A stretch of 43,235 nt of DNA from a virus (IMGVR_UViG_2645727669_000018); one strand, 5' to 3'; numbered from the stretch's first letter, positions 2,985 through 40,220 are shown. Notes: a model not told the origin generated them from the letters alone. Translations and numbers: made by a program.

Positions 2985-3854
<870 letters not shown>

Positions 3855-3911: not shown

Positions 3912-4466
3912 TCATTTATCTCCGACCGGAAACTTCTTATACAGTGTCGATATACCAACATCATAGATGATCGCCACCTTCTGGCGAGGAACGCCTGATG
4001 CAATTAATCGCCCGGCCTGCGCCCATTGTTCTGGTGTAAGTTTGGGACGACGTCCACCAATTCGTCCCTGTGCGCGAGCAGCTTCCAGTCCAGCTTTTGT
4101 TCGTTCAACAATCAGTTCTCGTTCCATTTCAGCCAGGGCACCCATCACATGAAAGAAAAAACGCCCCATCGGTGTGCTGGTATCAATAGCATCCGTCAGG
4201 CTGCGAAAATTAACGCCACGTTCGCGCAACTCCTCAACCAGAATGACCAGATGCCGCATACTACGCCCTAGCCGATCCAGCTTCCAGACAACCAGAGTGT
4301 CACCTGCCGATAATGTCCTGAGCAGTTTTTTCAATCCCGGCCTTTCGGACTTTGTACCGCTTATCTTGTCTTCAAAAATCAGCTCGCATCCTGCACAGTT
4401 CAGCGCATTACGTTGTAGATCTGTGTTCTGGTCATTTGTTGACACACGTACATAGCCAATAAGCAT
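3912..4466 (-). CDS. pin: Serine DNA invertase, Pin/Gin/Hin/Cin family
   Basis: MLIGYVRVSTNDQ...WKLDRLGRS serine-recombinase catalytic motifs and C-terminal HTH; 184 aa from ATG 4466 with GGGAG-type SD upstream; adjacent to an invertible tail-fibre segment. Confidence 0.9.
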   Translation of the reverse strand: MLIGYVRVSTNDQNTDLQRNALNCAGCELIFEDKISGTKSERPGLKKLLRTLSAGDTLVVWKLDRLGRSMRHLVILVEELRERGVNFRSLTDAIDTSTPMGRFFFHVMGALAEMERELIVERTKAGLEAARAQGRIGGRRPKLTPEQWAQAGRLIASGVPRQKVAIIYDVGISTLYKKFPVGDK

Positions 4467-4520
4467 GGTAGATCTCCCTGACAAAAGCAGGAATGATGCC
4501 ATTTGCTCGTTATTTCTGCA

Positions 4521-5695: not shown

Positions 5696-6354
5696 AATTT
5701 CCCAATTCCTAAAATATGGACATCATCAGCCTTACGGGCATTCCAGGTGACAATTACATCGGTAGAGTGACGATTAACTGAGATTGCGTATGCTTCGTTA
5801 GTCGAGCCAGAAACTTTTGTGGCAAACACAGCAAACAGGACACCAAATGACTGGGGCCATTTATAGCCTGACAGCTGATAATTACCATTATTCAGTGTTA
5901 CAGCTTTGGCTGCTGCACTTGATGGAATCGTCAGCCACTGGAGTATCAACCCTCCTGGCAAAAGTTGTTTTCCGTAATAATCCCTCACCCCACTAAATGA
6001 AACCATGTCCGGTATCTGATTTTCCCCTGTGCCCACATTCCGTTTTGCCGCTTCTCCCAAACCAAGGTTTTCGAGAGCCGTTTTCACCGTGCCATCCGAT
6101 TTGATATCGCTAAACGGATTCTTGCGGCTTAACAGCAGCGCACGAAGCGCGGTAAGCAGCTGGTCATGCCGCCCCTTCTCCAGGCTGGCACCGGATGCCT
6201 CCACCACGCTGCAGAGTTCTTCCTGCAACATATCAAAGTAGTCATCATCAAGATCGGTGGCAGGTGTGCCGGTCTGGGGGTTACCACGGGTAAAACCGTT
6301 TTTACCCGCGCCGAACTTATCCTTCTGCGCGGTTTTCGTGTCTATACGATGCAT
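5692..6354 (-). CDS. Side tail-fibre protein (constant N-terminus plus invertible C-terminus)
   Basis: 220-aa ORF spanning the recombination site at 6064/6065; N-terminal about 100 aa outside the segment, C-terminal about 120 aa inside; resembles e14/Mu-type short fibres (from memory). Confidence 0.75.
6052..6077. repeat. hix/gix-like 26-bp recombination site (fibre-proximal boundary)
   Basis: ttctcccaaaccaaggttttcgagag; core AAACCAAGGTTTT matches the hix consensus core (from memory); inverted relative to the site at 4521-4546. Confidence 0.65.
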
Positions 6355-6357
6355 GGA

Positions 6358-6942
6358 TTACTCCGGATATTTAAAAATTACGTAGGTATGCGACGGGCAG
6401 AGTTTGTTAAGCACACACTCGACAACGGTGTCGCCCCATATACGCAGCGCGGAATCACAGGGATCGCCACATGTCATCCAGGTGGTGTTGGTGGCGGCTG
6501 GCATGTTGATCTGCCAGTAATACCGCCATTCCGGCGCATTCACCTCGTCAGTACAGGCCGATGAGCAGGTGAAGGTGCTTTTGTCGTATCGCGTGATGGT
6601 GGCATCTGGCCTGCCCAGGGCAGCAAGCTGTGCAAGATAAAAATCCTCGTTGATGCCGCCCGCCAGGTTAACCTTCGCATCCAGCCGTTGCTGACGCTGG
6701 CGAAGGGTCTGCGCTCCCGCCGGAATACATTCATCCGGCAGACCGCACAGACGCTCCCAGCGGTTTATCAGTTCAGTGGTGGTGCGCGGATCCAGCTCCC
6801 GCATCAGGGCATCCGCACGCTGATGAACGCGGGTTAATGACGGTGCCGCACCGGCAATCGCCGGATCTCTGGCTGACCACGCCGGACCGGGTGGCAACAG
6901 TGCCGACAACAGACGGATGTAATCATCGTTTGTCACGTCCAT
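6358..6942 (-). CDS. Tail protein, YmfQ/DUF2313-like (Mu gp48 family)
   Basis: 194-aa ORF immediately upstream of the fibre gene; recalled similarity to e14 YmfQ; position matches Mu-like baseplate/fibre connector. Confidence 0.6.
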
Positions 6943-7991
6943 GAAATCGTCCCCAGAACCGCCAGTTCATTTTTCGCAATGGAGATATTGTCTGCCGGTG
7001 CAAGCAACTGATGGCTATATTCCCCGTTCGCACCGGAAATCGCCTCACTGATACGCGATACCTTCAGTTCTCCCTGCGGATAACCATCACGCAGAAGAAA
7101 CGAACGCAACTCCGCGGTGATGGCGGCTCGTATTTCTGGTGTGTCCGGCGTCACGCGGATATGAAAATCCACCGTATGTGCCACCGGCCTGAATACATAC
7201 AAATCAGAGCCTGCCACCGGGGCCAGTGGCACGATATGTTGTCTTGCTGCCGTTTCCGTTGATTCTTCCGGAATGGGATTAATCAGGTCACTGCTGGCAA
7301 TCATCACACCGACAGTTCCCGTTCCCATCCAGTGACGGTATGTCCATGCGCGGGTAATGCCGGGCACTTCTTTAGCCCAGACGACATAGTCCCCGTCAGC
7401 CCCGCCCTGAGGCGTCCAGTAATACCGCTCAATGACGCGGGCGCGCCACGTTTCCAGCTCTTCAGTATCAAATCCGCCTGTAAGGGTGTCAGCCACACCG
7501 GAAGACGGCAGACCATTCACCGGCGTGACCAGGATTAATGCCGTACCGTCGTCAGCGTTACCGACCGCACCTGCACTTGAGCAGGCGATCGGCACGCGCA
7601 GGACACCACCGGAGCTGGTTGCATCGGCAGTTGCCGTGTACTGAACCAGGTCATCGCGCTGAATAACACTCCCGGCGGTCACCTTCAGGCCATCGCTGAC
7701 ACCTTCCCAGCGCATATACCCGCTGGCAGCCGTGGCCCCCTTGCGCGGACACCGTTTCATCGCAGCATGTCGCGCCAGCCAGGACTCATCGCACAGGTCA
7801 GGCAGCATGTTCATTGCCAGATAATCGATGTAACCGTAAACCGTATGCAGCGCCGCCGCATACACCTTTGCCCGCACGTCTTCATCCATGCGCCGGAGCG
7901 TGTCGCTGACGTCCAGCCTGGCGAATAAATCGTTACGGAGCATACTGATATTTTCTGCCAGCGTCGGGCGCTGAAATTCACTGTCCGCCAT
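6933..7991 (-). CDS. Baseplate J-like protein (Mu gp47 family)
   Basis: 352 aa; size, position and family pattern typical of baseplate J proteins in Mu-like tail clusters; overlaps neighbours by a few nt (operon packing). Confidence 0.7.
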
Positions 7992-8406
7992 GCGTTATCG
8001 CACTCCACAGATCATCAAAAGAAATCATTACCGGTCCGTCACGACGCCAGAGAGTGATACTGTTACCCAGTTCATTAATCCCGGTGCGGCGGATATCCAG
8101 ATCAATACGGGACACCACGCCGTCATCAATCATCCATTGCAGGCATTCGCGGATATACCCCCTTACCGTCTGCACCAGCTGATTGGTCAGTTTGCTGCGC
8201 TGAAGCAGCCACAGTCGGGAGCCGTAACGGTCATTCTGTACCGCAGGCCAGGTATCCCCCCACCATCCCATCGGGACGTCGGCGTTGTCATCAGGCTCCG
8301 CCCGCCGCCAGGTAAACAGGGAAATCACCACGGCGCGGGTCAGCGGATCCAGTTGTGCGCTGGCGCAGGTGCGTTTACCGTTCACCGTCAGCCACAGTTC
8401 CATCAT
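7978..8406 (-). CDS. Baseplate protein, GP46 family
   Basis: 142 aa, between baseplate spike and baseplate J genes as in Mu-like clusters. Confidence 0.55.
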   Translation of the reverse strand: MMELWLTVNGKRTCASAQLDPLTRAVVISLFTWRRAEPDDNADVPMGWWGDTWPAVQNDRYGSRLWLLQRSKLTNQLVQTVRGYIRECLQWMIDDGVVSRIDLDIRRTGINELGNSITLWRRDGPVMISFDDLWSAITHGGQ

Positions 8407-8951
8407 GCCTCCATCGCTTTATCAGGTTTGTCGGTGTTACTGCCCTGACCGTTCTCTCTGTGACGATGCCCGTTATAGGCAAGCCGCATCGCTGACATGG
8501 TGGTGCCGGTGGAGTCGCACAGGTCTTTCACCTGTCCGGTCACTTCTAGGTCCATTTCAAAACGTGCCTTAGGCGCATTGCGAAACGTGATCGTTTTACC
8601 TGCACCGTCCACCACGATCCCCTCCCGGGCCAGCGTCACGGACTGCCCCTGATCGTCATAGACAGCCACCTCACCCGTCTGCAGCCCTTTCAGGCGGTAG
8701 CGCCGGTCCGACACCGTAACAACCACCGCATGAGAACGGTCGCCATCCGGAAACAACACCACCGCTTCCGCACCGCTGTTTGCCCTTGCGGTAAAACCGT
8801 AGGGTTCAAGATGTTCAACCCCGGCTTTGGGTTCACCGGCAATCAGGGACACATCCACGGTCTGACATTTCGTGGCGGCACTGATGCTTTTCACCACTGC
8901 CCGCCCAATCAGGCCGAGGAGTTGTCGCTGCATGGCTTCAATCGTCCTCAT
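8403..8951 (-). CDS. Baseplate assembly/spike protein (gpV-like, Mu gp45 family)
   Basis: 182 aa; conserved position; translation consistent with gpV-type OB-fold spike proteins. Confidence 0.6.
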   Translation of the reverse strand: MRTIEAMQRQLLGLIGRAVVKSISAATKCQTVDVSLIAGEPKAGVEHLEPYGFTARANSGAEAVVLFPDGDRSHAVVVTVSDRRYRLKGLQTGEVAVYDDQGQSVTLAREGIVVDGAGKTITFRNAPKARFEMDLEVTGQVKDLCDSTGTTMSAMRLAYNGHRHRENGQGSNTDKPDKAMEA

Positions 8952-10030
8952 CAGAACGGGTCCTCCTGTACTCTGGCTTTTTTCTTTTTCCGCGCGCCGG
9001 GGGCTTCGGGTTCAGGCAGATAAGCATCAGGTGGGCCGACACGGATTTCCGTCATGGTGCCGTTCTGGTCCTGAGTGAACGTGACTTCCGAGACAAGCAG
9101 TTCGGTATTGTCGAAACCACAGACCGGATCGAAGACAATCACCCGCTGGTTGGGCTGCCACAGCGTACCGTTACCCTGTCGCCAGCCCTGCACCAAATAG
9201 GTGGTTTCATCCGTCCGCGCCGCCCGTTGTCGGGCTTCAAAGTCAGCACGCGCAATACAGCCTGCCCCCGTGGCCTGCCCTGTCTGCCTGATATACATCG
9301 GACGGTAACGGGCAATAAATGCGTCCTCTGTGCGGGCCCGCAGCGCGGTGGTGGTGGCCTCACCGAAATCATCGTCGTTCCCGGCACGCTGCCCCGCCAC
9401 CTGGTAAACAGAAAATCGCTCCCGGATACTCTTCTCCGTATCGCAGGAAAGGATGTTTTCCCCGAGTACCAGCGCAGTATGTGCCCGCGTTGAGCCAATA
9501 CCGCCAATCACCAGCCTGCCGTGCGGGTCGTCGTAAGCCAGTGCCTGCTGCTGACCGAGTATTTTGTTGATTACCTCAATCACCGTTTCACCGTGATCAG
9601 GCTGAACATCAGGAATAACACCCGACGGCGCACCGCTGTTCACCACCTCAATGCCGAAAGGCGCAGCAAGCGCCTGCGCAATCTGCACCAGCGAGCGTCC
9701 GTTAAACTGTGTCGGTTCGGCTGCACAGTCAATCAGGTCAGCCGTCAGACTACGTCCGGCAATACCGGTGCTGACCGAACGGGCATCGTAACGAACGGGA
9801 GTCGCCTCCACCCAGCCGGTGATCACCAGCTCATCACCAATCAGCACTTCCACTTTTGAACCGTTTTTAATGCGCGGCTGAAGCGTGGTGATACCCTCAT
9901 CTCCCGGCCACTGGCGAGTGATCTCCACACTGAAATCCCGCGCCAGCCGTTCAATACCGGCACCGATGCGCACCGATGTCCAGCCATTCCACTCCCGGCC
10001 ATTTACCCGTAGCGTGACATTGTCGTTCAT
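8951..10030 (-). CDS. Tail/baseplate hub protein (Mu gpP / P2 gpD-like)
   Basis: 359 aa directly downstream of the DNA-circulation gene, the position of Mu P; ends in a Lys-rich tail. Confidence 0.55.
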   Translation of the reverse strand: MNDNVTLRVNGREWNGWTSVRIGAGIERLARDFSVEITRQWPGDEGITTLQPRIKNGSKVEVLIGDELVITGWVEATPVRYDARSVSTGIAGRSLTADLIDCAAEPTQFNGRSLVQIAQALAAPFGIEVVNSGAPSGVIPDVQPDHGETVIEVINKILGQQQALAYDDPHGRLVIGGIGSTRAHTALVLGENILSCDTEKSIRERFSVYQVAGQRAGNDDDFGEATTTALRARTEDAFIARYRPMYIRQTGQATGAGCIARADFEARQRAARTDETTYLVQGWRQGNGTLWQPNQRVIVFDPVCGFDNTELLVSEVTFTQDQNGTMTEIRVGPPDAYLPEPEAPGARKKKKARVQEDPF

Positions 10031-11355
10031 TGCACTGGCACCTTCAGAGGGATCACCGGCACAAAGCCGGGATGCGTAATGGCATTACGCCGGATAATGT
10101 CCGCGTCACGCGCCGCGTTATCAAACCAGGTCGCCGCCAGCACCAGCGCGGGTAAAACCTCATCCGGTGTGCGCTGAATGATCCGTGCAGACTGTTCAAG
10201 GCGCGTGTTGATATCCGCATTCAGATCTGCTTTCACCCGGCGCAGCGCCAGAAACAGCGCATCACTGGTTGTACGGGACAACTCCTTATCAATTGCCGTA
10301 TTCAGTGTGTCGCGAATGTCAGTCAGTTCTTCCCACGTCGGCAGGTCAACCGTGTTTTTCACCGCCGGTGCATTGTTCAGTGCCGGATGCGTGACGGAAG
10401 GCCAGCCAGTGCTCTGCGCAGGTGTTGTTGCCTGCCCCACTGCGGAATTCTGCATCACCGCGGAAGTTGTTGGCGCAGGCAATCGGGTGACGGCATACGC
10501 CGCTTCACTGATTGCGGTCGTACGAAGGGTGCTGGCAACCACATTACGCTGCTGCGTAGCCGTGGCGGTGGTTTTACTGTCCGTTTTCCAGACACCGCGC
10601 GGTTGCAGATCGCTGCCGAGGCTGACACCGGAAAGCGTTTTGATCATGGTGACCAGGTCGCTGGCGTTACCATAAAGGCGTTTCCCGGTACGCCACATTT
10701 TCTGCACCTGCTCAACGAGATTTTTGCCTGACGATGGTGGCGGCAGAAGTACCGAGATATCCCCCTGCAACAGCCTGGCAGCATCCGATACGGCAGAATC
10801 CACCACTTTCATCGCATCAGAAACATACCCAAGCATTGTGCTGACATTACCAACGACGTCGTTCTGCACGAAATCCGCCACGCCATCGATACTGAAACCT
10901 CTGAAGCTGTCACTGATGCAGTCATCCAGTGCAGAACAGGATGACATCAGCGTCTGCGCCGTCGCCGCACCTGAAGTGGGGTAAGAGAGTTCTCCCGCTT
11001 CGACAAACTTCAGGTCAAAGCGGACAATACGCCCTTCACTCTTCGATGTGCTGACCCGAACTTCCCCGTCAACACAGACTTTCAGCTCACCATATGTCGG
11101 GTGGACAAGCGTGCCGGGACCGGGTTTATTCAGCGCTTCAATCAGGCGATCTCGCTGGTCAAAGCAGTCATCTCCCACCACATAAGCTGTGATGGACGGG
11201 CGGAAAGTGACTTTTCCCAGATCTTCGGTATAGGGTTTGTCGCGGTTCGGGTATTCATGTGTTTCCACACGGCGACCGGTTCCCGCACTTTCTTCTTCAA
11301 CCTTAAACGGCACACCTCGAAATGACGCATCCTGAAGCCTGTCTTTCCACGTCAT
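10027..11355 (-). CDS. DNA circulation protein (Mu gp43/N-like)
   Basis: 442 aa from ATG 11355 (GGAG 5 nt upstream) rather than the GTG at 11361; between tape-measure and baseplate genes. Confidence 0.65.
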   Translation of the reverse strand: MTWKDRLQDASFRGVPFKVEEESAGTGRRVETHEYPNRDKPYTEDLGKVTFRPSITAYVVGDDCFDQRDRLIEALNKPGPGTLVHPTYGELKVCVDGEVRVSTSKSEGRIVRFDLKFVEAGELSYPTSGAATAQTLMSSCSALDDCISDSFRGFSIDGVADFVQNDVVGNVSTMLGYVSDAMKVVDSAVSDAARLLQGDISVLLPPPSSGKNLVEQVQKMWRTGKRLYGNASDLVTMIKTLSGVSLGSDLQPRGVWKTDSKTTATATQQRNVVASTLRTTAISEAAYAVTRLPAPTTSAVMQNSAVGQATTPAQSTGWPSVTHPALNNAPAVKNTVDLPTWEELTDIRDTLNTAIDKELSRTTSDALFLALRRVKADLNADINTRLEQSARIIQRTPDEVLPALVLAATWFDNAARDADIIRRNAITHPGFVPVIPLKVPVQ

Positions 11356-11365
11356 ATACACTCCG

Positions 11366-11397
11366 AAAATAAAAAAGCCACCTATTAGAAGGTGGCC
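11366..11397 (-). terminator. Rho-independent terminator downstream of the tail-cluster moron
   Basis: Minus-strand RNA ggccaccuu-cuaau-aggugg followed by UUUUUUAUUUU; 7-bp GC-rich stem; abuts the SD of the next late gene. Confidence 0.7.
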
Positions 11398-11416
11398 TTG
11401 TAATGAATTTTATTAA

Positions 11417-11947
11417 TTAGCGAGTCAGAAACAACGAATCTTTATACTTTTGCTGTTGTTCATTTAAATACTTAGCTGTTTCATCGCTGGCAAATGGAAA
11501 TATTACCGTATTTTTAGGCATGGTAATTTCTTTTTTGTCCAGCGTCAGAGTAAACATAGGAACATACTGAGCAGAGTAACGCACCGCAGAAACGAGCTCT
11601 AGTTTAGACTCTTCAATAACACTTAAATTATCCAGGCTAACTTTCTCTTCATCTTTTTTCTTTGACGCATTTAAAGTTTTTATTACTTTATTTAATTTCT
11701 CCTGAAAATCCTCCTTAAAGTTTTCAGGATTGCCGTCGACAACAAGAATCTGTTCACCCTGATTATCTGGAAAAATAATCTTTGCACTTATCAATTTATT
11801 TTCTTTATAAACATCACCAAGTTTTATGGCTCCTCCAGATAACTGAATAATATGTTCATCTTTAAAGGAGATGTTGCCAGAGATTATGAGAGATGAAAAA
11901 ATAGCCGCTGCTCCAAGAATTACACTTGCTGTGATATAGCCTTTCAT
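11417..11947 (-). CDS. Hypothetical exported/membrane-anchored protein (moron inside tail operon)
   Basis: 176 aa, visibly AT-rich, Lys/Asn-rich; N-terminal hydrophobic segment (VILGAAAIFSSLIISG) suggests signal peptide or anchor; own candidate promoter and terminator. Confidence 0.6.
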   Translation of the reverse strand: MKGYITASVILGAAAIFSSLIISGNISFKDEHIIQLSGGAIKLGDVYKENKLISAKIIFPDNQGEQILVVDGNPENFKEDFQEKLNKVIKTLNASKKKDEEKVSLDNLSVIEESKLELVSAVRYSAQYVPMFTLTLDKKEITMPKNTVIFPFASDETAKYLNEQQQKYKDSLFLTR

Positions 11948-11982
11948 TTTTCGCCTATTAACATTTTTCTAAATGTGCATTA

Positions 11983-12010
11983 ATTCTATCACTCTATTTA
12001 TGACTTACAA
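11983..12010 (-). promoter_or_regulatory. Candidate sigma70 promoter for the tail-cluster moron
   Basis: Minus strand: TTGTAA - 16 nt - TAGAAT, about 30 nt upstream of the moron ATG, in the gap after the tape-measure gene. Confidence 0.4.
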
Positions 12011-12038
12011 CCAGCAATACATGTGAGGGGAATCCTGG

Positions 12039-13871
12039 CTACCAAAATCGGGTATAGCCAACATCGTGATTTATATCAATGCCACTGGAGCGTGTTTCCG
12101 TAACCCGCATACCTGATGGCATATTTATAAATGATACCTTGATCTCACCATCAACTTTTGGCGCGGTAGCTTTATTAATCATGAAGGGATTCGAGCCTGT
12201 GGCATCGGAGGCGTTGTTTGCCTGAGCCGGATCCACCGCCGGATAAGGAGTGTATCCCCGTGCCGGTATTCCCGTCCCATAAGCATCATAAGCACCCGCG
12301 CCCCACTGCGCAGAGTTAATGGCATCGACCGTGTCACCGGAACTGTCGGTAAACCACTCAATAATTGGCTTCAGCTTGTCCCACATATCCTGAAACCACT
12401 TAACAACCGGCCCCCAGTTATTGATCACCATCCCCAGCGGCGACCAGGCAAAAACTTTCTTAAGGAGTTCCCAGCCAGCCTCAAAATAAGGACCAATGGT
12501 TTCCCAGAGTTTCTTAAAATAAGGTCCGACAACATCCCAGTTAGTGATAATTAATCCCGCAGCCAGGGCTATCGCCGTCGCAATCATGCCAATCGGCGTC
12601 ATCGACATGATCCTGCTGACAATACTGATGGCACCGCCAACGCCCATCAATCCCAGTTTCAGAATCGCAAGACCGGCAGCAAGCCCGACGACGCCGCGAA
12701 TAACCCGGGGATTTTCATCCGCAAACTTCGTGAATTTTTCCCCCAACTCCCCCAGCCATTGCGTGATATTTTTAGCGTCACCAGAAAATGCGCCGCCAAT
12801 AGCTGCAAGACCGTTAGTTGCGGTCCCCGTCATTGCCTCCCACAGGTTGGACAGCGTACCAAGCTGAGCCTGAACACGTTTATTCAGGCTGGCCTGTTTA
12901 TTCATCTTCTGCTGGATCTGATCGTAGCCATCCTTTCCTTTATCGATCAGGGCATTGACCACCTGAAGGGTTTCGGCATCATCACCAAATATTGCCTTAA
13001 GTACGCCTGTTCGCTTAACGTCGGTCAGTTTTCGCAACTTTGCCAGTTGCCTGAACATGTTATCAAGACCGCCAAAACTTCCTTTGCCGTCAGTAAAATC
13101 GAGCTGTACCCCGAGTTTCTGGCGGGCCATGACTTTATTGACGTCCCTGATTTTCTTAACACTTAATCCGGACTGGATAACTTTTCGCAGGGCATTACCT
13201 GCCGACTCCCCGTTCATCCCCATCTGATCCATCATGACGCTGATGGGGGCAAGGCTCTGTGCAGCCTGAAGACCGTCCTTGTTCACCATCTTCAGAACAG
13301 AACTGGTTTTAGTGAAGAAGGACAACATGTTGGTATCGTCAACGCCCAGATAAAACGCCTTCTGGATAGTGTCGAACAGCCCCATCATGTCTTCTGACGC
13401 CGTTCCGGTAGCATCCTGCATCTTTGCAGCAAACTCAGCAGCCGCTTCCGGTGTTTTTTTCAGTTGTACCGCAAGATAAGCTGTCGCTTTACCCACACCA
13501 CCCAGAATGTTTTCTGCCGGGATCCCCTGCCGCACCAGCATCTGCATCATGTTCTGGAAATCAGCCGTTGTACCGGGTAGCTGGTTACCCAGGCCAATAG
13601 CCAGTTTATTGATGTCCTGAAAGCTCTTTCCAACCTCGCCGTTCGCATCCATCATGGCGACTTTCAGCCCGGTAGCGGCGTTTTCCTGATCGGCATAAGA
13701 TTTCAGGGAAAGCGTCAGCCCCGCTGCCAGTCCTCCACCAAGCGCCAGCCCACCCTGTGACGCTTCTTCCGCCTGGCGTTTAAATCCCCGGATTTTCTTT
13801 TGCATTTTCGACAGCGCGGGAGAAAGCCTGTCGACACCGGTGATCAACGCCTTAAGCTCAAATTCAGCCAT
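12039..13871 (-). CDS. Tail tape-measure protein
   Basis: 610 aa, Ala/Gly/Leu-rich with central hydrophobic segment; follows the chaperone frameshift pair. Confidence 0.85.
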   Translation of the reverse strand: MAEFELKALITGVDRLSPALSKMQKKIRGFKRQAEEASQGGLALGGGLAAGLTLSLKSYADQENAATGLKVAMMDANGEVGKSFQDINKLAIGLGNQLPGTTADFQNMMQMLVRQGIPAENILGGVGKATAYLAVQLKKTPEAAAEFAAKMQDATGTASEDMMGLFDTIQKAFYLGVDDTNMLSFFTKTSSVLKMVNKDGLQAAQSLAPISVMMDQMGMNGESAGNALRKVIQSGLSVKKIRDVNKVMARQKLGVQLDFTDGKGSFGGLDNMFRQLAKLRKLTDVKRTGVLKAIFGDDAETLQVVNALIDKGKDGYDQIQQKMNKQASLNKRVQAQLGTLSNLWEAMTGTATNGLAAIGGAFSGDAKNITQWLGELGEKFTKFADENPRVIRGVVGLAAGLAILKLGLMGVGGAISIVSRIMSMTPIGMIATAIALAAGLIITNWDVVGPYFKKLWETIGPYFEAGWELLKKVFAWSPLGMVINNWGPVVKWFQDMWDKLKPIIEWFTDSSGDTVDAINSAQWGAGAYDAYGTGIPARGYTPYPAVDPAQANNASDATGSNPFMINKATAPKVDGEIKVSFINMPSGMRVTETRSSGIDINHDVGYTRFW

Positions 13872-14046
13872 GTGTGCGTTTCTCCTGCTCTATCCTGTTT
13901 GCCTGACTGACCAGCAAGGGAATTTCACTGATCGGCATATTCAGCAATTCGAAGGGATTAATGCGCCAGTAGCTGGCGCAGTCAAAGAAGCGATCAGTGA
14001 GGTATTCAGCCGTCAGGCCTGGAGGAAAAAACCAGCCACAAGCCAC
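13864..14046 (-). CDS. Tail assembly chaperone -1 frameshift extension (gpGT-like C-terminal part)
   Basis: ORF in the -1 frame relative to the chaperone, entered at slippery heptamer T TTT TTC; its translation continues ...FFPPGLTAEYL; overlaps the tape-measure start. Confidence 0.6.
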   Translation of the reverse strand: MACGWFFPPGLTAEYLTDRFFDCASYWRINPFELLNMPISEIPLLVSQANRIEQEKRTHG

Positions 14047-14282
14047 GCCGCTGCATTCAGGTCTGCCGGAGACATCTGGTCGACAGAGCTTTGCGGCACT
14101 TTCGCCAGCCGCACAATGTATTTCGACACCACATGCGCCAGAAGTCTGACGGACTCATCCTGATTCATCTGGTAGGGATACCCCAGCTCGCGGACATCTT
14201 TCCCGGTGGGCTCATCAAACTCCAGTACGGAGAGTGTCTCGCCATGAGCGGTAATCGGTTTCTTTAACTCAAGCTCTTTCAT
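14013..14282 (-). CDS. Tail assembly chaperone (gpG-like, Mu gp41 family)
   Basis: 89 aa between tail tube and tape-measure genes; ends ...AAAWLVAGFFLQA with the slippery site in its last codons. Confidence 0.75.
   Translation of the reverse strand: MKELELKKPITAHGETLSVLEFDEPTGKDVRELGYPYQMNQDESVRLLAHVVSKYIVRLAKVPQSSVDQMSPADLNAAAWLVAGFFLQA
14025..14031 (-). promoter_or_regulatory. Programmed -1 ribosomal frameshift slippery heptamer (T TTT TTC)
   Basis: Minus-strand codons GGT TTT TTC, 4 codons before the chaperone stop; -1 frame opens into ORF 13864-14046. Confidence 0.6.
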
Positions 14283-14638
14283 TACTGGTAATCCCCTTCT
14301 TCACCGTGGAACTCAAGATCGACCGTGCCTTCTTCGGCATTATGGTTCGCTTCGCCGTGCAGCCAGGCAGACGACAGTACATAGACCTGACCGTTCGCCA
14401 GCTCGGCAGTGATGGTCATCTCATCAGACGAGGTGATTTTGCTCACCGGAAAATTCTTCGGCACCTTGAAGGTCCCTTTGACATAAGGCGCACGGTGAGT
14501 TTCCTTGCGGTCCACTGAACCGTCCAGGCCGATGATGTCATCATTGACCGTCCTGTTCATGGGCACCTCAATGCCGCCGGTCAGCGATAGCTGCTGACCG
14601 TCAATTTTGAAATAACAGGTTCCCCCGATACGGGCCAT
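14282..14638 (-). CDS. Tail tube protein (Mu gp40/M-like)
   Basis: 118 aa directly after the sheath gene (stop/start overlap). Confidence 0.75.
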   Translation of the reverse strand: MARIGGTCYFKIDGQQLSLTGGIEVPMNRTVNDDIIGLDGSVDRKETHRAPYVKGTFKVPKNFPVSKITSSDEMTITAELANGQVYVLSSAWLHGEANHNAEEGTVDLEFHGEEGDYQ

Positions 14639-16134
14639 TATGCGGACTCCTCTGAATACTGAAGACGGAACTGGTTAACCACGGCAAAGACACGCAACTG
14701 GTTAACATAGTCAGGCGGGAACAGCGTGTTCAGGCGGTTCGGATCGCTGGCATCACGCTCCACAACTAGGTACTGCTTAAACAGTGCGTAGTTTTCCACG
14801 ATCCCCGCACGCTCAAGCTGACGGTAGGTTGCCAGCAGTTCCCCTTTGATCACCGCCGGGGTGACAATCGCCTGACCGGGACCAAAGCGGGTACCGTCAC
14901 TGGCAAGCTTGTGACGCCCGTACTTACTGGTAATGACGGATTTCAGTTTGCGCAGTACATACGCGCTGGTATGCAGAGTCTCACTGTCTAGGTAGCTGTT
15001 ATCCGCAACCCCGTAAGCGTTTTTCCTGTACGTGGTGACATCACGCTGAATGCGCAGTACCCCGCTTTCGACATACGCCGTTGCCACGCCATGAGACAGC
15101 AGGGTCTGTTGTTCGGTCATCGTGAACCGTTTCCCCTTCGGCGCAGGCAGCATACCCACCAGCTCACCGGTCTGCGTGGGACGTGCCGGATCGTTGCGAA
15201 TAAACACCGCTGCGCGGGCGGTACGGCTTGCCGCCAGTTCGTCGGCAGGCGTCTGGGTCTCTTTTTCGTACCCCGCCAGGGTAATGTGCTGCTGGTTAAA
15301 CTGGTCACCTGCGGTCACCAGTTCTGACAGCGTGCCGATCTTTGCCGTATACACATGACCATACAGCTGACGCGCATAGCTCCAGCGACCGCTGGTATCG
15401 TTCATCTCGGTCACCAGCGTGTTAACGGAGGCCGTGTCGTTGAACGGCAGGCCGATATAATCAAACGGCTCATCCGCCATTGCAGCCACCGCGCCGGTGA
15501 GAACCGGAGCGCCCGTTCCGGCGGTCCCCGTCGCCACGGCAATCTGTACGCCCGCTGGCAGCACTTCGCCCCCACCAAAGCCGTAGTAATTGAGGCTGAC
15601 AGGAATTTCATTCCCGCAAAGCCCCTTATGACGCGCGGTCAGCGTGACCACGCCTGCCGAAGATGAGGCCGTAAACGGCAGGGCCGGAACGGCATTAATG
15701 GCATCTTTGATACTGCCGGCAATCGTCGTGACGTTATCGCCGTTGGTCACCGGTGCCTGCACGCGGGTACGTCCCACATAAACATTCACCGTGCCGGTTT
15801 CGGTTGCCGCCCCGGTCACCGTCAGCGTAACCGTTGCCGCCGCGCCTGTGGCTTCCGGAACGGCAATCACATACAGCTCGCCAAACGGGTCAGTCTGGCG
15901 ATAAGCCTCGACCATACGCGCCAGCTGACTTCCCGCACCACAAATCTGGCGTGCATAGTCTGCCGACGGCATCAGCACCAGACTGTTGGCAACAATCTCT
16001 GCACCGTTATTGGCATGACCAATCAGCAGCGATGCTCCGCTGTCCTGTGCAGTATTCGCCGCCGAGTTATCCATTTCCGCATAAAACAGCGGAACCAGCG
16101 TATTCGACGGAATGGTGTTAAAGCTTATCGTCAT
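14638..16134 (-). CDS. Tail sheath protein (contractile tail)
   Basis: 498 aa; size, Gly/Ala/Thr-rich composition and position upstream of tube gene. Confidence 0.85.
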   Translation of the reverse strand: MTISFNTIPSNTLVPLFYAEMDNSAANTAQDSGASLLIGHANNGAEIVANSLVLMPSADYARQICGAGSQLARMVEAYRQTDPFGELYVIAVPEATGAAATVTLTVTGAATETGTVNVYVGRTRVQAPVTNGDNVTTIAGSIKDAINAVPALPFTASSSAGVVTLTARHKGLCGNEIPVSLNYYGFGGGEVLPAGVQIAVATGTAGTGAPVLTGAVAAMADEPFDYIGLPFNDTASVNTLVTEMNDTSGRWSYARQLYGHVYTAKIGTLSELVTAGDQFNQQHITLAGYEKETQTPADELAASRTARAAVFIRNDPARPTQTGELVGMLPAPKGKRFTMTEQQTLLSHGVATAYVESGVLRIQRDVTTYRKNAYGVADNSYLDSETLHTSAYVLRKLKSVITSKYGRHKLASDGTRFGPGQAIVTPAVIKGELLATYRQLERAGIVENYALFKQYLVVERDASDPNRLNTLFPPDYVNQLRVFAVVNQFRLQYSEESA

Positions 16135-16288
16135 CGGTGTTCACCTTTTTATTCACGCGCCGGATATCACCCGCGGCTTCACGGCGCAGCCAGTAGTTGT
16201 TCTCGTCAACATTTCGCCCTTCGGCGGGCAAAAGGTCGCCGCGGGCAGGGTCAGGCACTGACCGCCCTTTAACAGGTTTCACAAACAT
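16118..16288 (-). CDS. Small hypothetical protein upstream of sheath gene
   Basis: 56-aa ORF found manually (below ORF-track cutoff): MFVKPVKGRSVPDPARGDLLPAEGRNVDENNYWLRREAAGDIRRVNKKVNTDDDKL; stop overlaps sheath start; fills an otherwise empty gap. Confidence 0.4.
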   Translation of the reverse strand: MFVKPVKGRSVPDPARGDLLPAEGRNVDENNYWLRREAAGDIRRVNKKVNTDDDKL

Positions 16289-16296
16289 GAGGATCC

Positions 16297-16857
16297 TCAG
16301 GAAGGAAGGGTTATTTCGGTGTGATGTTCGATATCGCCGTCAGGCCCGTTACCGGGCTCGAGATAATCAACATCAATCGCCAGCGTTTGCAGTTCATCCA
16401 GACTGTTCAGATCATCCTGCTGGCGGGTATCGTCTTCAGTCAGCTCGCTGATGACCGAAAAATCGAACTGATAAATCAGCTCATGACGATTCAGATCCAG
16501 CAGCGTGCCGCCGTCATAGGTAATCGGGTTACCGCACGCTTCCGGGTTCCAGCCCAGCAGGGCCTTAAAGAGCATCTGCCGGACATCGTCCACCACATCA
16601 TATGAGGCAAACTGACCGCGCTCATCACGCCCGTTACTCAGTATGACAACCACGGAGAAGCCCTCTTTCAGCTCCTGCCAGTAGTCGGTCTGGCTTTTGT
16701 TTTCTCCCGGAGAGTCATCACCCGGTACCACATACGCCGCCGGGAGTCTCAGCTTTCCGACCTCCGGCAGATTTTTGAACTGTGCCGCGCCTGCCACCCG
16801 GTTTTCAAAATACGGGCAGCGGGCACGCAGCGCAGCAATAACAGGCGTCAGTTTCAT
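16297..16857 (-). CDS. Putative tail terminator/neck protein (Mu gp37-like)
   Basis: 186-aa acidic protein between head-completion genes and sheath. Confidence 0.45.
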   Translation of the reverse strand: MKLTPVIAALRARCPYFENRVAGAAQFKNLPEVGKLRLPAAYVVPGDDSPGENKSQTDYWQELKEGFSVVVILSNGRDERGQFASYDVVDDVRQMLFKALLGWNPEACGNPITYDGGTLLDLNRHELIYQFDFSVISELTEDDTRQQDDLNSLDELQTLAIDVDYLEPGNGPDGDIEHHTEITLPS

Positions 16858-17360
16858 CTGTGTCGTCGCTCCGGCTTCAGTGATTTACGCAATTCCCGCG
16901 CCAGAAAATAGCGTGTCCAGCTGCGGTTCTTTTCAAGAGTTTCCACCATGAAGTTATTACGTGGAGCCAGTCGCCAGCCGCTGCCACCGGATGCGCCACG
17001 ATGATGACTACGACGACGTTTTGCTCCTCCCCGGACACCAAAAAACAGAAACGCCGGATAGAAGTCACCAGAGATCATCCGGTTCCCCTTCCCGTTGCGC
17101 TGGTTAGGGGCAATGCGTGTCATAAAACCGGCTCGCTTTTTACTGGCTCTCGGCACCATATAACCAATCGAACGAGCCAGGCGTCCGGTCTGATAACCGG
17201 GGTTTTCACCCGGTGCCGACCGCGCACGGCGCATCACCAGCCGACGGGCATCACGCATATGACGCTGCCCAATCGTGACAAACGCCCGCCGGACACGGGC
17301 GCGGTTAAAGCGCATCTCGGCGGGCTGCTGAACATCAACGTGAAAAAAGGGAGTCGCCAT
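16854..17360 (-). CDS. Putative virion morphogenesis / head-tail joining protein
   Basis: 168 aa, Arg-rich; in the head-tail junction block. Confidence 0.45.
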   Translation of the reverse strand: MATPFFHVDVQQPAEMRFNRARVRRAFVTIGQRHMRDARRLVMRRARSAPGENPGYQTGRLARSIGYMVPRASKKRAGFMTRIAPNQRNGKGNRMISGDFYPAFLFFGVRGGAKRRRSHHRGASGGSGWRLAPRNNFMVETLEKNRSWTRYFLARELRKSLKPERRHR

Positions 17361-17745
17361 TGCTGCCTCCGTGACTCTGCCTACATTCGCCCAGCTCCGT
17401 ACACTCCAGCAGCAGAAAGCGCCGCGCCCCGTTCAGATCACGCTGACGTTTCACCCGGTACACACTGTCATCACAGACCACCTCATAATCAGCGGTGATC
17501 CCCCGGCGGTAACGAATGGTGATGTAATGGGTGATGGCGTCCCCGGTCTGCGCGGTTTCCTGCCAGGTGGTGGCACTGGTCTGGATAACCTTCGCCCATG
17601 TCCGGAACGTAACCGGGTATTGAGGCTCCACGCCAAAGTTATCCGCGGGCATATCCACCCGCTGGCGGATCAGGACGCGTTTATTCAGTTCACCGGGGTC
17701 CGGCAGAATGTAGGTTGCGCTGGTCTGCGCCTGACGAATTTTCAT
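17335..17745 (-). CDS. Head-tail adaptor (head closure) protein
   Basis: 136 aa; pattern typical of SPP1 gp16-type head closure proteins; downstream of connector protein. Confidence 0.6.
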   Translation of the reverse strand: MKIRQAQTSATYILPDPGELNKRVLIRQRVDMPADNFGVEPQYPVTFRTWAKVIQTSATTWQETAQTGDAITHYITIRYRRGITADYEVVCDDSVYRVKRQRDLNGARRFLLLECTELGECRQSHGGSNGDSLFSR

Positions 17746-18065
17746 TGCGGAAAGTACCTGTACGGGCCGACAAGCCAGCCAAAACTCTGCGGCATGTCGA
17801 GTTTCTCCACTTCCGTAACCGACGAGCGGTTTTCGTAAAAATGGCTGATAAGCATCAGCATCCCCAGACGAATATCATCCGGCAGGTGCAGCCCGTCCGG
17901 ATCGCTGTCCGGAATGGTTTCATCCGGTGCATAGAGCTTCCGGTTCAGATACGTTTCCGTCCGCTTTTGTGCCGCACAGGCCAGCAGTTGCAGATGGCGG
18001 TCATCAGCATCGAAATCCTCATCCAGCCGGAGTTGGGCTTTAATCTCTTCCATTGTCAGAAGCAT
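17742..18065 (-). CDS. Head-tail connector protein (gp6-like)
   Basis: 107 aa; conserved position after capsid gene in HK97-type modules. Confidence 0.6.
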   Translation of the reverse strand: MLLTMEEIKAQLRLDEDFDADDRHLQLLACAAQKRTETYLNRKLYAPDETIPDSDPDGLHLPDDIRLGMLMLISHFYENRSSVTEVEKLDMPQSFGWLVGPYRYFPQ

Positions 18066-18067
18066 AC

Positions 18068-18268
18068 TCAGCCCTCTTTACTGGTCGTGGCTTTTTTCTC
18101 TTTTGTCGCTTTACTGCTTTTTGCACTGGTTCCGCGCTCTGCTAACCCGGCCTGAAGTGCAATCTCCTGCACCCGGGCAGGAAGCGCCCCGTCGTCATAC
18201 TCACCGGCCCGAATGACCTCAACACGCATACCGTCCGGTGACCATTTCAGATCTTGTTTCAGGATCAT
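18068..18268 (-). CDS. Small hypothetical protein (head module)
   Basis: 66 aa with Lys-rich C-terminus; tightly packed between capsid and connector genes. Confidence 0.4.
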   Translation of the reverse strand: MILKQDLKWSPDGMRVEVIRAGEYDDGALPARVQEIALQAGLAERGTSAKSSKATKEKKATTSKEG

Positions 18269-18288
18269 GATTCTTCACCCGTCAGAAC

Positions 18289-18310
18289 AGGGGCGCGGTT
18301 CCGCGCCCCT
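18289..18310 (-). terminator. GC-rich hairpin immediately after major capsid gene
   Basis: aggggcgcgg / ccgcgcccct 9-10 bp stem 7 nt after the capsid stop; no T-tract, so more likely partial terminator or stability element. Confidence 0.35.
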
Positions 18311-18316
18311 GAGTGA

Positions 18317-19522
18317 TTACGCCACTGCAATCTTCAGCAGTTTGATGGCCTGCGAATCGACCAGCATGCCGCCGGTGCGTTTGGTGGTATAAAAACCGAC
18401 AAACGGTTTATTGGTGTACGGGTCACGCAGAATGCGGGTGCCGATACGGTCAACGATGGTGTAACCCCGTTTGAAGTTACCAAATGCAATGGCTTTCGCA
18501 TCAGCGGCGATATCCGGCATCTGTTCGTTTTCAGCGATACCGTAACCCGCCAGAGAGGACGGCTGCCCCAGCTCCAGCCCCGGACGCCACAGATAGTTAC
18601 CCTCGCTGTCTTTCAGCAGACGGATGGCAAACAGGCTATTGTTGTTCATCATGAACTTCGCGCCTGTGCGGTGTGCCTTACGCAGCGTGTAAATCAGTTT
18701 GATAATGGCGTCTGCGGTCACCGCCGTCGCGTCGCCGGATACAATATGCTGAAGTTTGCCGAACGCCCGGACCTTATCGGTTTCATCCGTGGATTCATAC
18801 GCCAGGAACCCTTTCGGCTTCTTGGTACCATCGCCGGTGGTAAAGGCAATTTCTTCCTGTTCGGCAAATTCGGTTGCCAGCTCGCTGTTGATCCATGCTT
18901 CCACGTTGAAAAAGGCATCATCCAGCATTTTCTGGGTGGCCTGCGGGTTACCGTAGATTTCCCCCATGAAAGGTTCAATCAGGCCCAGTTTTGAGGTGGC
19001 AGTCTGGGAGCGCGCGTCAGTCTCACCAACCCATCCGGAAGCCGTGCCGCCCAGATTCACCAGTTTTTTGTAGTCGGAACCACCAACGGTGATCACCGTG
19101 GCTTCCTGGCGCATCACCACTTCATCTTTCAGCAGGGTGAGAATGTTGCGATCCAGTGCTTCCGGCATGGCATAGCCGCCGTCTTCATCGGTGCCCACCT
19201 GTAATGCCTTGCGCTCCAGATCGCGCAGACCATCTTCACGGCCTTTACGCAGGAAGCCCACAAACGCTTCTTTATGCTCGGTGGCCAGTTTATTTTGCGC
19301 ACCACCTGCCGGACGTTTCAGCTCAAGCAGCTCTTTTTCAAGATCGCTTTTGAGGTTTTCCAGCTCGCTGAGTTTCCCGTTCAGGGTTTCCACCTGCCCG
19401 GCAAGCTTGCCTTTTTCCTGCTCAATCGCATCCACGCGCTTGTCGTTCTTTGCTTTGAAGTCGTCAAACTTCTGCTGCAGCTCCTGCGCGACCTGTTCGA
19501 CATCTTTAATATCAACCGCCAT
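18317..19522 (-). CDS. Major capsid protein, HK97 family
   Basis: 401 aa; N-terminal coiled-coil delta/scaffold-like region followed by HK97-fold-like body; follows prohead protease. Confidence 0.85.
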   Translation of the reverse strand: MAVDIKDVEQVAQELQQKFDDFKAKNDKRVDAIEQEKGKLAGQVETLNGKLSELENLKSDLEKELLELKRPAGGAQNKLATEHKEAFVGFLRKGREDGLRDLERKALQVGTDEDGGYAMPEALDRNILTLLKDEVVMRQEATVITVGGSDYKKLVNLGGTASGWVGETDARSQTATSKLGLIEPFMGEIYGNPQATQKMLDDAFFNVEAWINSELATEFAEQEEIAFTTGDGTKKPKGFLAYESTDETDKVRAFGKLQHIVSGDATAVTADAIIKLIYTLRKAHRTGAKFMMNNNSLFAIRLLKDSEGNYLWRPGLELGQPSSLAGYGIAENEQMPDIAADAKAIAFGNFKRGYTIVDRIGTRILRDPYTNKPFVGFYTTKRTGGMLVDSQAIKLLKIAVA

Positions 19523-19536
19523 CGTATTTCTCCTGA

Positions 19537-21588: not shown

Positions 21589-21599
21589 AATTACCTCAG

Positions 21600-25162: not shown

Positions 25163-25219
25163 TTCTCAGTCAGCATAGTAGAAAAAAAAGATGTCCAGAT
25201 CCATACATCGAAAGCAATT

Positions 25220-28233: not shown

Positions 28234-28602
28234 CTAAGCGTCCATTTCAAGGTTAAAATCCAACATTGAAAGGCAACCATCAATAAATCCTTCGGCTAGT
28301 TGTATTTCTATGCGTACCAATTTTTCATCCTTTCCACGCACCTTTGCAATCTTACGCTTGGATATTCTGTATAAATAATGTGCCACAAGCAGCGAGTGCT
28401 CATCTGGCTTTTTTTGCTTTAGACGAGCAAGACAACCTTCAATAATTAATGCATCACTATCTGAACAAGCCTGACGTGTTTTGCTTGTGTAGGGAAGAAG
28501 CCCCTTAAACCCAGCAGCTATAGGCGAATAGTCTACTCCAGAACTATCACTCGCCGCCCATGCTCCCCAACGCTCCAGAACCATCTGAATATCACGCATC
28601 AA
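28234..28602 (-). CDS. Late-gene antiterminator Q (small Q family)
   Basis: 122 aa, MMRDIQMVLERWGAWAA... recalled as the N-terminus of lambdoid prophage Q proteins; sits upstream of the lysis cassette. Confidence 0.7.
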   Translation of the reverse strand: MMRDIQMVLERWGAWAASDSSGVDYSPIAAGFKGLLPYTSKTRQACSDSDALIIEGCLARLKQKKPDEHSLLVAHYLYRISKRKIAKVRGKDEKLVRIEIQLAEGFIDGCLSMLDFNLEMDA

Positions 28603-38880: not shown

Positions 38881-39087
38881 ATGCTGAACCTCGATTGTGT
38901 TCCAATCTCAACTTATTGCAAAGAAACTGGCGAAACTCCTGAAGCAATAAACAAACGTGTACAGCGCGGTGTTTGGCGTGAAGGTGTTCAGGTTTTAAAG
39001 GTTGAAGGCGTTAAGGAGAGGTGGATTGATCTTAGTGAGGTTGCAAAATGGGCCAGACAAAACTGCTCAAACTACCGCGCGGCGTAA
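38881..39087 (+). CDS. xis: Excisionase-like protein
   Basis: 68 aa from ATG 38881 (GGAG SD); small basic protein overlapping the integrase start as in lambda xis-int. Confidence 0.55.
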   Translation: MLNLDCVPISTYCKETGETPEAINKRVQRGVWREGVQVLKVEGVKERWIDLSEVAKWARQNCSNYRAA

Positions 39088-40220
39088 CAATCAGGAAACA
39101 CCGCCTGGGCGAAACGATCAATATAACTTTCACCTATAAAGGAGTTAAATGTCGTGAGCCTCTTTCCAATCTGGAAGTAATACCAAAGAACATAAAATAC
39201 GCCGAGCGCACACTCGGCGAAATTCATAATAAGATCGAAAGGGGAACATTCATTTATGCGGAATATTTTCCCCGTTCTGCTCGTTTGAAAATTTTTGGTA
39301 ATGCTGCTGCAGGCAAAACGGTAAAAATGTACCTGGACGAATACCTTGAAATCTGCGAAACGAGAAAACTTTCACCCTCTACGATTGGTGGTTATAAAAA
39401 ATGCCGTAGTGCGTTAGCCTCACTCCACATTTGCCCTGCAAGTGAATTAACACCAGCAATCCTGAAAGCGTGGATTCAAAGCCAGAAAACGACCTTAAAA
39501 ACAATTCGCAACCAGTTATCTTTCCTGCGGTCAGCACTTGATGAAGCCGTAACCGATGGGGTACTTCAAATTAACCCCGTATCGTTGGTAACTGCTTCGC
39601 GCTACCAAAGTGATAAGTCAGAAGCAGAAAGCAGCTACGTGGTTGATCCGCTATCACCAGCAGAAGTTGATGCATTACTAGCAGCAGCCGGAAACAAACA
39701 ATGGGAAAATCTGTTCCGGTTCGCTATACATACAGGCCTGCGTAGTTCTGAATTATGTGCCCTTCGATGGCGTGATATCGACTTTGTTGGAAAAACTGCC
39801 CATGTCCAGAGCGCAAGTGTTGTCGGTGTTATCAAAGGGACAAAGACAAAAGCAGGTACTCGGAAAGTTGAACTGACAGAAGAGGCAATGTTGGCGCTGA
39901 TAAATCAGAAGCCATTTACATTCATGAAGGATGCTACTGTCTTTGAAGATCCAAAGACCAATAAGCCTTGGGCAAGTGCTGATGCAATTAGGAAAAAAGC
40001 ATGGGTGCCAACATTGCGAAAAGCAGGTATTCGTTACAGAAACCCATATCAAACCAGGCATACATTCGCCACCAGCCATATCAGCCGAGGAGCAAACCTG
40101 TTTTGGCTTGCAGCTCAAATGGGGCATAAAGGGCCGGAGATGCTTTTCAGGCACTATGGTTCGTATCTTAAAGAGTATGATAACTTTACATCGATAAATC
40201 ATTTGCATAATCATAATTAA
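39048..40220 (+). CDS. int: Tyrosine integrase (lambda Int family)
   Basis: 390 aa; C-terminal catalytic region with conserved Arg, HxxR-like and terminal Tyr context (RHTFATSH...LFRHYGSY). Confidence 0.9.
   Translation: MGQTKLLKLPRGVTIRKHRLGETINITFTYKGVKCREPLSNLEVIPKNIKYAERTLGEIHNKIERGTFIYAEYFPRSARLKIFGNAAAGKTVKMYLDEYLEICETRKLSPSTIGGYKKCRSALASLHICPASELTPAILKAWIQSQKTTLKTIRNQLSFLRSALDEAVTDGVLQINPVSLVTASRYQSDKSEAESSYVVDPLSPAEVDALLAAAGNKQWENLFRFAIHTGLRSSELCALRWRDIDFVGKTAHVQSASVVGVIKGTKTKAGTRKVELTEEAMLALINQKPFTFMKDATVFEDPKTNKPWASADAIRKKAWVPTLRKAGIRYRNPYQTRHTFATSHISRGANLFWLAAQMGHKGPEMLFRHYGSYLKEYDNFTSINHLHNHN

Follow-up and report, generated by a model that had tools for sequence, protein, structure and literature searches.

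The 43,235-nucleotide (nt) stretch of viral DNA IMGVR_UViG_2645727669_000018, referred to here as the window, is a lambdoid-regulated myovirus prophage of Escherichia coli, of the SfV/e14 type and regulated by Q. Within its tail operon, between the gene for the tape-measure protein and a gene for a Mu N-like DNA-circulation or baseplate-hub protein, we identified an exchangeable AT-rich accessory cassette with a strong terminator (11377..12038, minus strand, extending from the tape-measure stop codon to a shared T-tract), the gene of which (11417..11947, minus strand, ATG start) encodes a protein of 176 amino acids (aa). It is very probable that this cassette is a moron and that its product is membrane-anchored. 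We tentatively propose that the product could be an inner-membrane superinfection- or entry-exclusion protein acting against contractile-tail phages.

A cargo slot between the tape-measure and hub genes

The flanks of the cassette match the corresponding regions of phages SfI, SfII, SfV, SfIV and SKA5 at 93 to 96%. In SfI, SfII, SfV and vB_EcoM-689R6 the site is empty: the flanks are ~93% identical to those of the window and ~620 bp are absent, a call made by megablast, in which the match spans 781 bp in these four records versus the 1401 bp of the query. The empty sites in these sequences show the cassette to be dispensable. The SfII junction, which we read directly, has ~40 nt in place of the cassette, holding only a terminator, and phage SKA5 carries at the same place an unrelated 170-aa protein with a signal peptide. 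Among 5426 complete E. coli genomes, the flanks were found in 1093 and the 176-aa cargo in 173 to 179 (identity at least 99%). E. coli S51 (NZ_CP015995) is one carrier. In a spread sample of 60 hits among the genomes with flanks, the slot was empty in ~30 and occupied by the 176-aa cargo in 10; the remaining states were the SKA5 type, with its 170-aa secreted protein (~4, judged by span), a bPH_1 protein of 125 aa (2), a lipoprotein of 225 aa with the lipobox LLGGC (2), a transmembrane (TM)-anchored OB-fold protein of 148 aa encoded on the opposite strand (1) and a different tape-measure end (~10). All slot cargoes are AT-rich, with a guanine-plus-cytosine (GC) content of 0.31 to 0.42, and four of the five types are directed to the envelope. 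The OB-fold cargo matches phrog_8545 'superinfection exclusion Sie-like' at 1.5e-49, and none of the four alternative cargoes matches a PADLOC defence model at E ≤ 0.01.

A five-way alignment of slot variants defined both edges of the exchanged segment. On the left, homology stops in the last tape-measure codons, at GATGTTGGCTATAC.CG.TT.GG, and on the right the breakpoint falls at the T-tract, TTTTTTAT….GGAGT.TATATGACGTGG. The block formed by the T-tract and the Shine-Dalgarno sequence is invariant across the variants and the terminator stems differ, so the terminator is a property of the slot and not of the 176-aa moron alone. The lipoprotein allele and the Leclercia-type allele of the 176-aa family have the same terminator stem. 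We thus describe the junction as a one-gene cargo slot with a resident terminator, and our literature search found no paper on it.

The cassette and its surroundings also differ in their recent history. In 78 IMG/VR E. coli prophage copies, divergence from the window is 0.04 to 0.34% inside the cassette versus 2 to 4% in the adjacent tape-measure and hub sequence. The cassette is therefore 10 to 50 times less diverged than its flanks, and the change occurs inside the 100-bp bins where its edges lie. Most simply, the cassette would have arisen once and recently in E. coli, and its flanks would still be recombining with the large pool that lacks it. The same pattern would also result if the cassette had been transferred repeatedly.

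Variable cargo hotspots are known in temperate phages such as P2 and P4 (Rousset et al. 2022, as cited in PMC10884400). As far as those hotspots are described there, they have in common with the present slot a fixed junction between conserved genes, filled by alternative and unrelated accessory genes from one genome to another. The slot differs from that description in lying inside a tail operon, in its very small size, with room for one gene, in having a resident terminator, T-tract and Shine-Dalgarno junction, and in the lack of any cargo matching a PADLOC model.

Layout and composition of the cassette

The 176-aa open reading frame (ORF) is bordered upstream by the tape-measure gene (12039..13871, minus strand, 610 aa; PF10145, 9.8e-27; phrog_28/17727) and downstream by the hub gene (10027..11355, minus strand, 442 aa from the ATG at 11355; PF07157 (DNA_circ_N), 3.7e-34; phrog_184, 8.1e-146), which can also be read as 10027..11361, the RefSeq start being the ATG. 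An earlier reading of the window, made from the sequence only, had placed an AT-rich gene between tape-measure and DNA-circulation genes, and both the position and the composition are borne out. GC content is 0.343 in the 176-aa coding sequence and 0.337 over 11366-12038, versus 0.513 in the tape-measure gene and 0.556 in the hub gene. In the windowed GC profile the cassette forms the deepest and only pronounced dip of the structural operon, all other 600-bp bins over 6000-24000 lying at 0.50 to 0.61. The cassette contains no plus-strand ORF of at least 40 aa, and nowhere in the window does a match reach the gathering score of its Rfam family.

The intrinsic terminator (11366..11399, minus strand) consists of a stem-loop (11399-11374) with a 10-bp stem and a T-tract (11376-11366), followed by the GGAG (11364-11361) and the ATG (11355) of the hub gene. 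Its folding energy is -15.6 kcal/mol (z = -4.73), and none of 200 shuffled sequences folded as well. The strong terminator with a T-tract abutting the next Shine-Dalgarno sequence, as the sequence-only reading had described it, is thus present, but it is not peculiar to the cassette, since the empty SfII site and the other cargoes also have one. The prophage encodes a Q antiterminator, so a terminator inside the tail operon would be tolerable, as late transcription could read through it; such read-through of the internal terminator is expected by analogy with the lambdoid Q mechanism.

A candidate sigma-70 promoter lies at 11983..12010 on the minus strand, with a -35 element TTGTAA (12010-12005), a 16-nt spacer and a TG-extended -10 element TAGAAT (11988-11983), ~35 nt upstream of the ATG. 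In a consensus scan it scores 9 of 12 matches plus the TG extension. The sequence earlier taken for the gene's own promoter is therefore there, but promoter-like sites are no more frequent in the cassette stretch than expected by chance (3 observed versus 3.1 expected from shuffles), and we regard it as a plausible candidate that is not statistically distinctive. Analogous promoter-like sites are present in two relatives of the gene (L007 and L008) and none was seen in a third (L003).

Morons, in the Juhala and Hendrix definition restated in PMC3594210, are recognized by being extra DNA, by a differing base composition, by their own promoter, by their own terminator and by expression from the repressed prophage. 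Three of these five features were found here, namely absence from close relatives at the same position, base composition and terminator. The proposal that the gene is a moron is thus supported by the comparative tests, and its likeness to lom and cor, which had been advanced with it, is one of architecture only. Pfam searches revealed no homology to the Ail/Lom family of outer-membrane beta-barrels or to Cor, and the predicted structure is a TM helix with an alpha/beta sandwich and no beta-barrel.

A protein of an unstudied family under purifying selection

The 176-aa protein corresponds to RefSeq WP_000679479.1, annotated as a hypothetical protein, and matches phrog_5485 (unknown function) over its full length (E 3.8e-108, residues 1-176 aligned to positions 1-176 of the 176 in the profile). 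Its PHROG matches are only to families of unknown function, and no sequence match was found in Pfam, NCBIfam, PADLOC (PADLOC-DB 2.0: none at E ≤ 10) or the PDB, in agreement with the earlier statement that the product has no recognizable domain. Our literature search returned no paper on WP_000679479, and the papers on SfIV and SfII treat morons elsewhere in the genome, in the Q-lysis region, and not at the tape-measure/hub junction.

A word-indexed search returned homologues of 173 to 174 aa with 52 to 58% identity in Leclercia, Lelliottia and metagenomes, and an exhaustive profile search extended the family to 77 clusters (at 50% identity), 48 of them at E ≤ 1e-10, with nearly all full-length members measuring 165 to 205 aa. 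None of the 62 members that were aligned contains a Pfam domain, and the family profile finds nothing in the PDB. In a tblastn search, none of 50,697 deposited phage genomes matched the protein, even with E values up to 10 allowed, an odd emptiness that may reflect filters of the tool; together with the megablast result for the flanks, we take this to mean that the gene is absent from the deposited phage collection.

Substitution patterns show the protein to be under strong purifying selection. The ratio of nonsynonymous to synonymous substitution rates (dN/dS) between two Leclercia-type copies (L003 versus L008) is 0.078, for a dS of ~1.1, and 75 of 80 IMG/VR copies are intact, with conservative substitutions only.

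Predicted structure and membrane topology

Almost all of the 62 aligned members start with a long uncharged hydrophobic stretch, with a median of 22 uncharged residues. In the window protein the hydrophobic segment covers residues ~4-23 (Kyte-Doolittle mean of 1.85 over 19-mers), and the N-terminal signal or anchor noticed earlier in the sequence was thus found again; its features look like those of a retained TM anchor and not of a cleaved signal peptide. A lipobox-like motif occurs in 1 of the 62 family members, and the window protein has neither a lipobox nor a cysteine. Positions 7/8, 12, 14, 18/19 and 23 are Gly, Ala or Ser in 74 to 95% of these sequences, which share only ~20 to 58% identity, and the small-xxx-small packing face that they form on the TM helix is more conserved than most of the soluble domain.

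The AlphaFold2 model, obtained with the 62-sequence alignment, is confident (mean predicted local distance difference test, pLDDT, of 90.8; predicted TM-score, pTM, of 0.75). It comprises a helix (residues 3-22), four strands (32-36, 39-44, 46-59 and 66-72), a second helix (74-94), a long hairpin (114-126/132-143) and a C-terminal helix (149-171). From this model and the sequence features we strongly infer a bitopic inner-membrane protein with its N-terminus inside, one TM helix and a periplasmic alpha/beta domain of ~150 aa (residues 30-171). The predicted location in the inner membrane is drawn from the hydrophobic helix, the missing lipobox and the conserved small-residue face. The nearly invariant residues G39, L43, G44, Y47 and E49 are located only 15 to 25 residues past the helix, and they should therefore lie at the inner membrane, close to its periplasmic face.

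No solved structure in the PDB is a neighbour of this confident model of the 176-aa protein. A Foldseek search returned a single significant neighbour, the 'lipoprotein' of Pseudomonas phage ventosus (UniProt A0A2H4P829, BFVD model; E 1.2e-6, probability 1.00), which overlaps with TM-scores of 0.53/0.63 over 157 columns. Like the 176-aa protein, it is exported and encoded by a phage, but it shares 15% identity and is lipid-anchored instead of TM-anchored. An assignment to the i-spanins (Rz) was rejected on the lack of a PF03245 match, the mixed beta/alpha periplasmic domain, the location of the gene and the presence of a separate Rz in the prophage.

Genomic context of the relatives

Wherever the context of relatives is informative, the gene lies in or beside a phage tail module; the contigs of three relatives (P0052, P0066 and P0088) were too short to be informative. 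The same arrangement as in the window, between tape-measure and hub genes, was found for relatives sharing with the window protein 59% identity (L088), 53 to 56% (L003 to L006 and L008), 41% (L009, from Edwardsiella), 38% (L090) and 30% (L092), in prophages assigned to Leclercia and Edwardsiella as well as in unassigned contigs from genomes and metagenomes. Other copies with 30% identity (L102/L103) have the hub gene on one side and the spike gene on the other, in an unrelated baseplate of the E217/Pam3 type, and one with 23% identity (L093) is convergent with another tape-measure gene cluster. A search of GTDB representative genomes with a narrow family alignment found one locus.

Between the window and Leclercia, identity is 68% for the hub, 53% for the 176-aa protein and 36% overall for the tape-measure protein, the C-terminal third of which is much more conserved. 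The 53% of the moron alongside these two values indicates that the gene is an old resident of the lineage. Its GC content is 0.35 to 0.42 in all relatives examined versus 0.47 to 0.58 in their surroundings, and for such an old resident this argues that low GC is maintained and is not the mark of a recent arrival. The arrangement of terminator, T-tract and Shine-Dalgarno sequence is repeated in 7 of 10 same-strand relatives checked.

One homologue stands alone. In Lelliottia amnigena (L007, 7633-8700), a copy with 54% identity is found just downstream of icd, the integration site of e14. Upstream of it is a relic of the 3' end of the tape-measure gene (…SEIDVNHHVSYTP), the terminator is kept downstream, and purifying selection persists. 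This copy is all that has stayed intact of an e14/SfV-like prophage that decayed at the site, and its survival argues that the host benefits from it.

A possible role in entry exclusion

We propose that the protein may be made in the lysogen from its own candidate promoter, as well as from the late transcript, and that from the inner membrane it would interfere, as HK97 gp15 does against siphophages, at the point where an incoming contractile-tail phage opens the DNA channel with its tape measure and hub. Being tightly linked to the genes for these two proteins, such a blocker would stay with the entry apparatus that it recognizes. We put this forward because linkage of the family to genes for the tape measure, hub and spike recurs in two tail architectures, because an allelic cargo of the same slot matches the 'Sie-like' phrog_8545, because most slot alleles are envelope-targeted, and because HK97 gp15 offers a precedent.

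The product of HK97 gp15, a YebO-like superinfection-exclusion protein (Cumby et al. 2012, via PMC3594210), is an inner-membrane protein encoded by a tail-operon moron beside the tape-measure gene, and it blocks DNA entry in a fashion dependent on the superinfecting phage's tail (PMC3594210). Both genes form an independent tail-operon cassette by the tape-measure gene, with deviating GC content and a terminator, gp15 having a promoter of its own where the present cassette has a candidate only, and both products belong to the inner membrane, by prediction in our case. The differences are considerable: gp15 is a small protein of the YebO family, whereas the 176-aa protein is predicted to carry a folded periplasmic domain of ~150 aa and has no sequence relationship to it; HK97 is a siphovirus with its slot between the chaperone and tape-measure genes, whereas here the phage has a contractile tail and the slot lies between tape-measure and hub; and exclusion has been demonstrated for gp15, whereas for the 176-aa protein it is only inferred. 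Searches of Pfam, NCBIfam and PADLOC with the protein and 62 family members returned no match to the inner-membrane exclusion proteins HK97 gp15/YebO, P22 SieA or T4 Imm.

The phrog_8545 cargo (a TM-anchored OB-fold protein of 148 aa, tRNA_anti-like PF12869, GC 0.37) resembles the 176-aa cargo in occupying the same junction, in its case in other SfV-like prophages of E. coli, in being AT-rich, in its similar size and in its N-terminal TM helix. Its fold and sequence are unrelated, its gene runs in the opposite direction, and it owes the name Sie to a database annotation. Phage T5 encodes a lipoprotein blocker, Llp, beside the tail component whose entry route this protein closes. Cor of phi80 and N15 (PMC3594210) is another envelope-directed blocker whose gene adjoins that of the tail component whose entry route it shuts. 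Cor and Llp act on the outer-membrane receptor FhuA. The 176-aa protein lacks a lipobox, is predicted to reside in the inner membrane and shows no homology to either, and its architectural likeness to them is looser than that to gp15.

Several observations weigh against exclusion as the function. The promoter reaches only 9 of 12 matches in AT-rich DNA, as expected by chance, and has no counterpart at the equivalent site in L003. Homology to a characterized exclusion protein or defence system was not found in Pfam, NCBIfam, PADLOC or the PDB. The Sie-like label of the neighbouring allele comes from the PHROG annotation and not from experiment. One distant relative (22% identity) adjoins a TRAP transporter with no phage genes in view, and linkage to tail genes fits a role in the lytic cycle equally well.

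Two other functions have to be weighed. The protein could be a lysogenic-conversion or host-fitness factor unrelated to exclusion, one that changes envelope physiology (stress tolerance, transport, signalling or colonization) in the way that Bor and Lom act at the outer membrane. Such a factor would equally be expected to have a moron's architecture and an envelope location, the retention of the Lelliottia copy at icd with no phage genes around it suggests a phage-independent benefit to the host, and the 22%-identical relative is likewise in a non-phage context. A fitness role of this kind leaves unexplained, however, why relatives with 23 to 59% identity, in two unrelated tail architectures, remain in the tape-measure/hub/spike block; moreover, the predicted inner-membrane anchor excludes the surface-exposed roles typical of Lom and Bor, and no domain hints at an enzymatic or transport activity. 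We consider this explanation unlikely.

Somewhat less likely again is a late-expressed accessory function of the lytic cycle, in which the protein would be made only by Q-antiterminated read-through and would act in the envelope of the dying cell, either to stop progeny tails from triggering on debris or to tune lysis and exit. T5 Llp protects progeny in a comparable way, at its receptor. The gene is co-oriented with the late operon and embedded in it, its promoter has no statistical support, the prophage has a Q, and conserved synteny with tail genes means co-regulation. Against this stand the lack of the gene in isolated phages (SfI, SfII, SfV and 689R6); the slot allele on the opposite strand, which is hence not a late read-through product; the terminator and a GC content that stays low, both hallmarks of morons with their own transcription (PMC3594210); the Lelliottia remnant, which is under purifying selection with no late operon at all; and the lysis functions (holin and Rz), which are encoded elsewhere in the window.

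That the gene is a core tail-assembly or structural gene with an incidentally low GC, a possibility raised with the sequence-only reading and for which only its conserved position in relatives down to 30% identity speaks, is effectively refuted, since the gene is always AT-rich even where it is syntenic in distant relatives, SfI, SfII and SfV were isolated as phages with an empty site, most E. coli prophages with the same flanks also lack it, unrelated genes substitute for it in the slot, and a membrane anchor would remove the protein from the cytoplasm, where tails assemble.

Going beyond exclusion by this one protein, the family might represent a new class of tail-module-linked entry-exclusion proteins of contractile-tail phages, which we advance as doubtful. 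In that case, the conserved TM face and the juxtamembrane beta-hairpin would engage the incoming tape measure or hub, or the host membrane protein that these use, at the inner membrane, and the junction would be a dedicated 'landing pad', with its resident terminator and its fixed T-tract/Shine-Dalgarno edge, where SfV/e14-like phages would swap envelope-targeted exclusion genes.

Other features of the prophage

Besides the Q antiterminator (28234..28602, minus strand; PF06530, 4.1e-51), the prophage carries Rz (25220-25732), a holin (26163-26489), an integrase (39048..40220) and a Pin-type invertase. The invertase (3912-4502, minus strand) flanks the tail-fibre genes and is adjoined by a gene with a LEM-3-like GIY-YIG domain (3030-3854, plus strand), a pair that is also annotated in E. 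coli MS 69-1. Just outside the invertase/tail-fibre end, genes for an EcoRII-type restriction endonuclease (1-1209, plus strand) and a C-5 cytosine methylase with a DNA_meth_N domain (1244-2719, minus strand), with GC of 0.40 to 0.48, may be cargo of the prophage border.

Between the Q antiterminator and the holin, a region that is a classic second moron slot (26786-28198) contains two plus-strand ORFs of 313 and 153 aa with no Pfam match and GC of ~0.37 to 0.44. In E. coli MS 69-1 this second slot is filled differently, with a nucleoid-associated protein and two hypothetical proteins. An AT-rich island (24380-25200, GC 0.36) just downstream of Rz holds a 260-aa minus-strand ORF with a TTG start and no Pfam match. 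After the integrase, 40201-43235 is probably the border between prophage and chromosome: it is at first very AT-rich (GC 0.295 at 40201-40800), followed by a 259-aa ORF with no Pfam match, and an IS21-type element lies near the end of the window (IstB, 41434-42168; rve transposase, 42213-43235). A complete copy of the prophage with the cassette has been deposited as a 64-kb plasmid (NZ_CP146678.1, E. coli MS 69-1 'plasmid unnamed3'; L101 in our set); this record also has chromosomal-looking genes (ykgR and AraC and LysR regulators) and may be a misassigned chromosomal contig.

Significance

Tail-operon morons are a known source of exclusion and fitness factors in prophages, and few of them have been assigned a mechanism. 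The gene described here is of an ordinary kind, a phage accessory gene, from an unstudied family; what it adds is a slot for one gene with a terminator in residence, a broad family associated with tail modules, and a confident structural model with no solved neighbour. The 176-aa cargo is carried by ~3% of complete E. coli genomes, with relatives in other Enterobacterales. With at least five alternative alleles, most of them envelope-targeted, the slot offers a small natural collection of candidate exclusion genes suited to side-by-side comparison. The gene recurs beside those encoding the part of contractile tails that penetrates the membrane. If the protein does block DNA entry, it would provide a handle on the poorly understood crossing of the inner membrane by myovirus tape-measure and hub proteins, and would bear on predicting how resistant lysogens of E. 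coli and Shigella are to phages, whether temperate or therapeutic.

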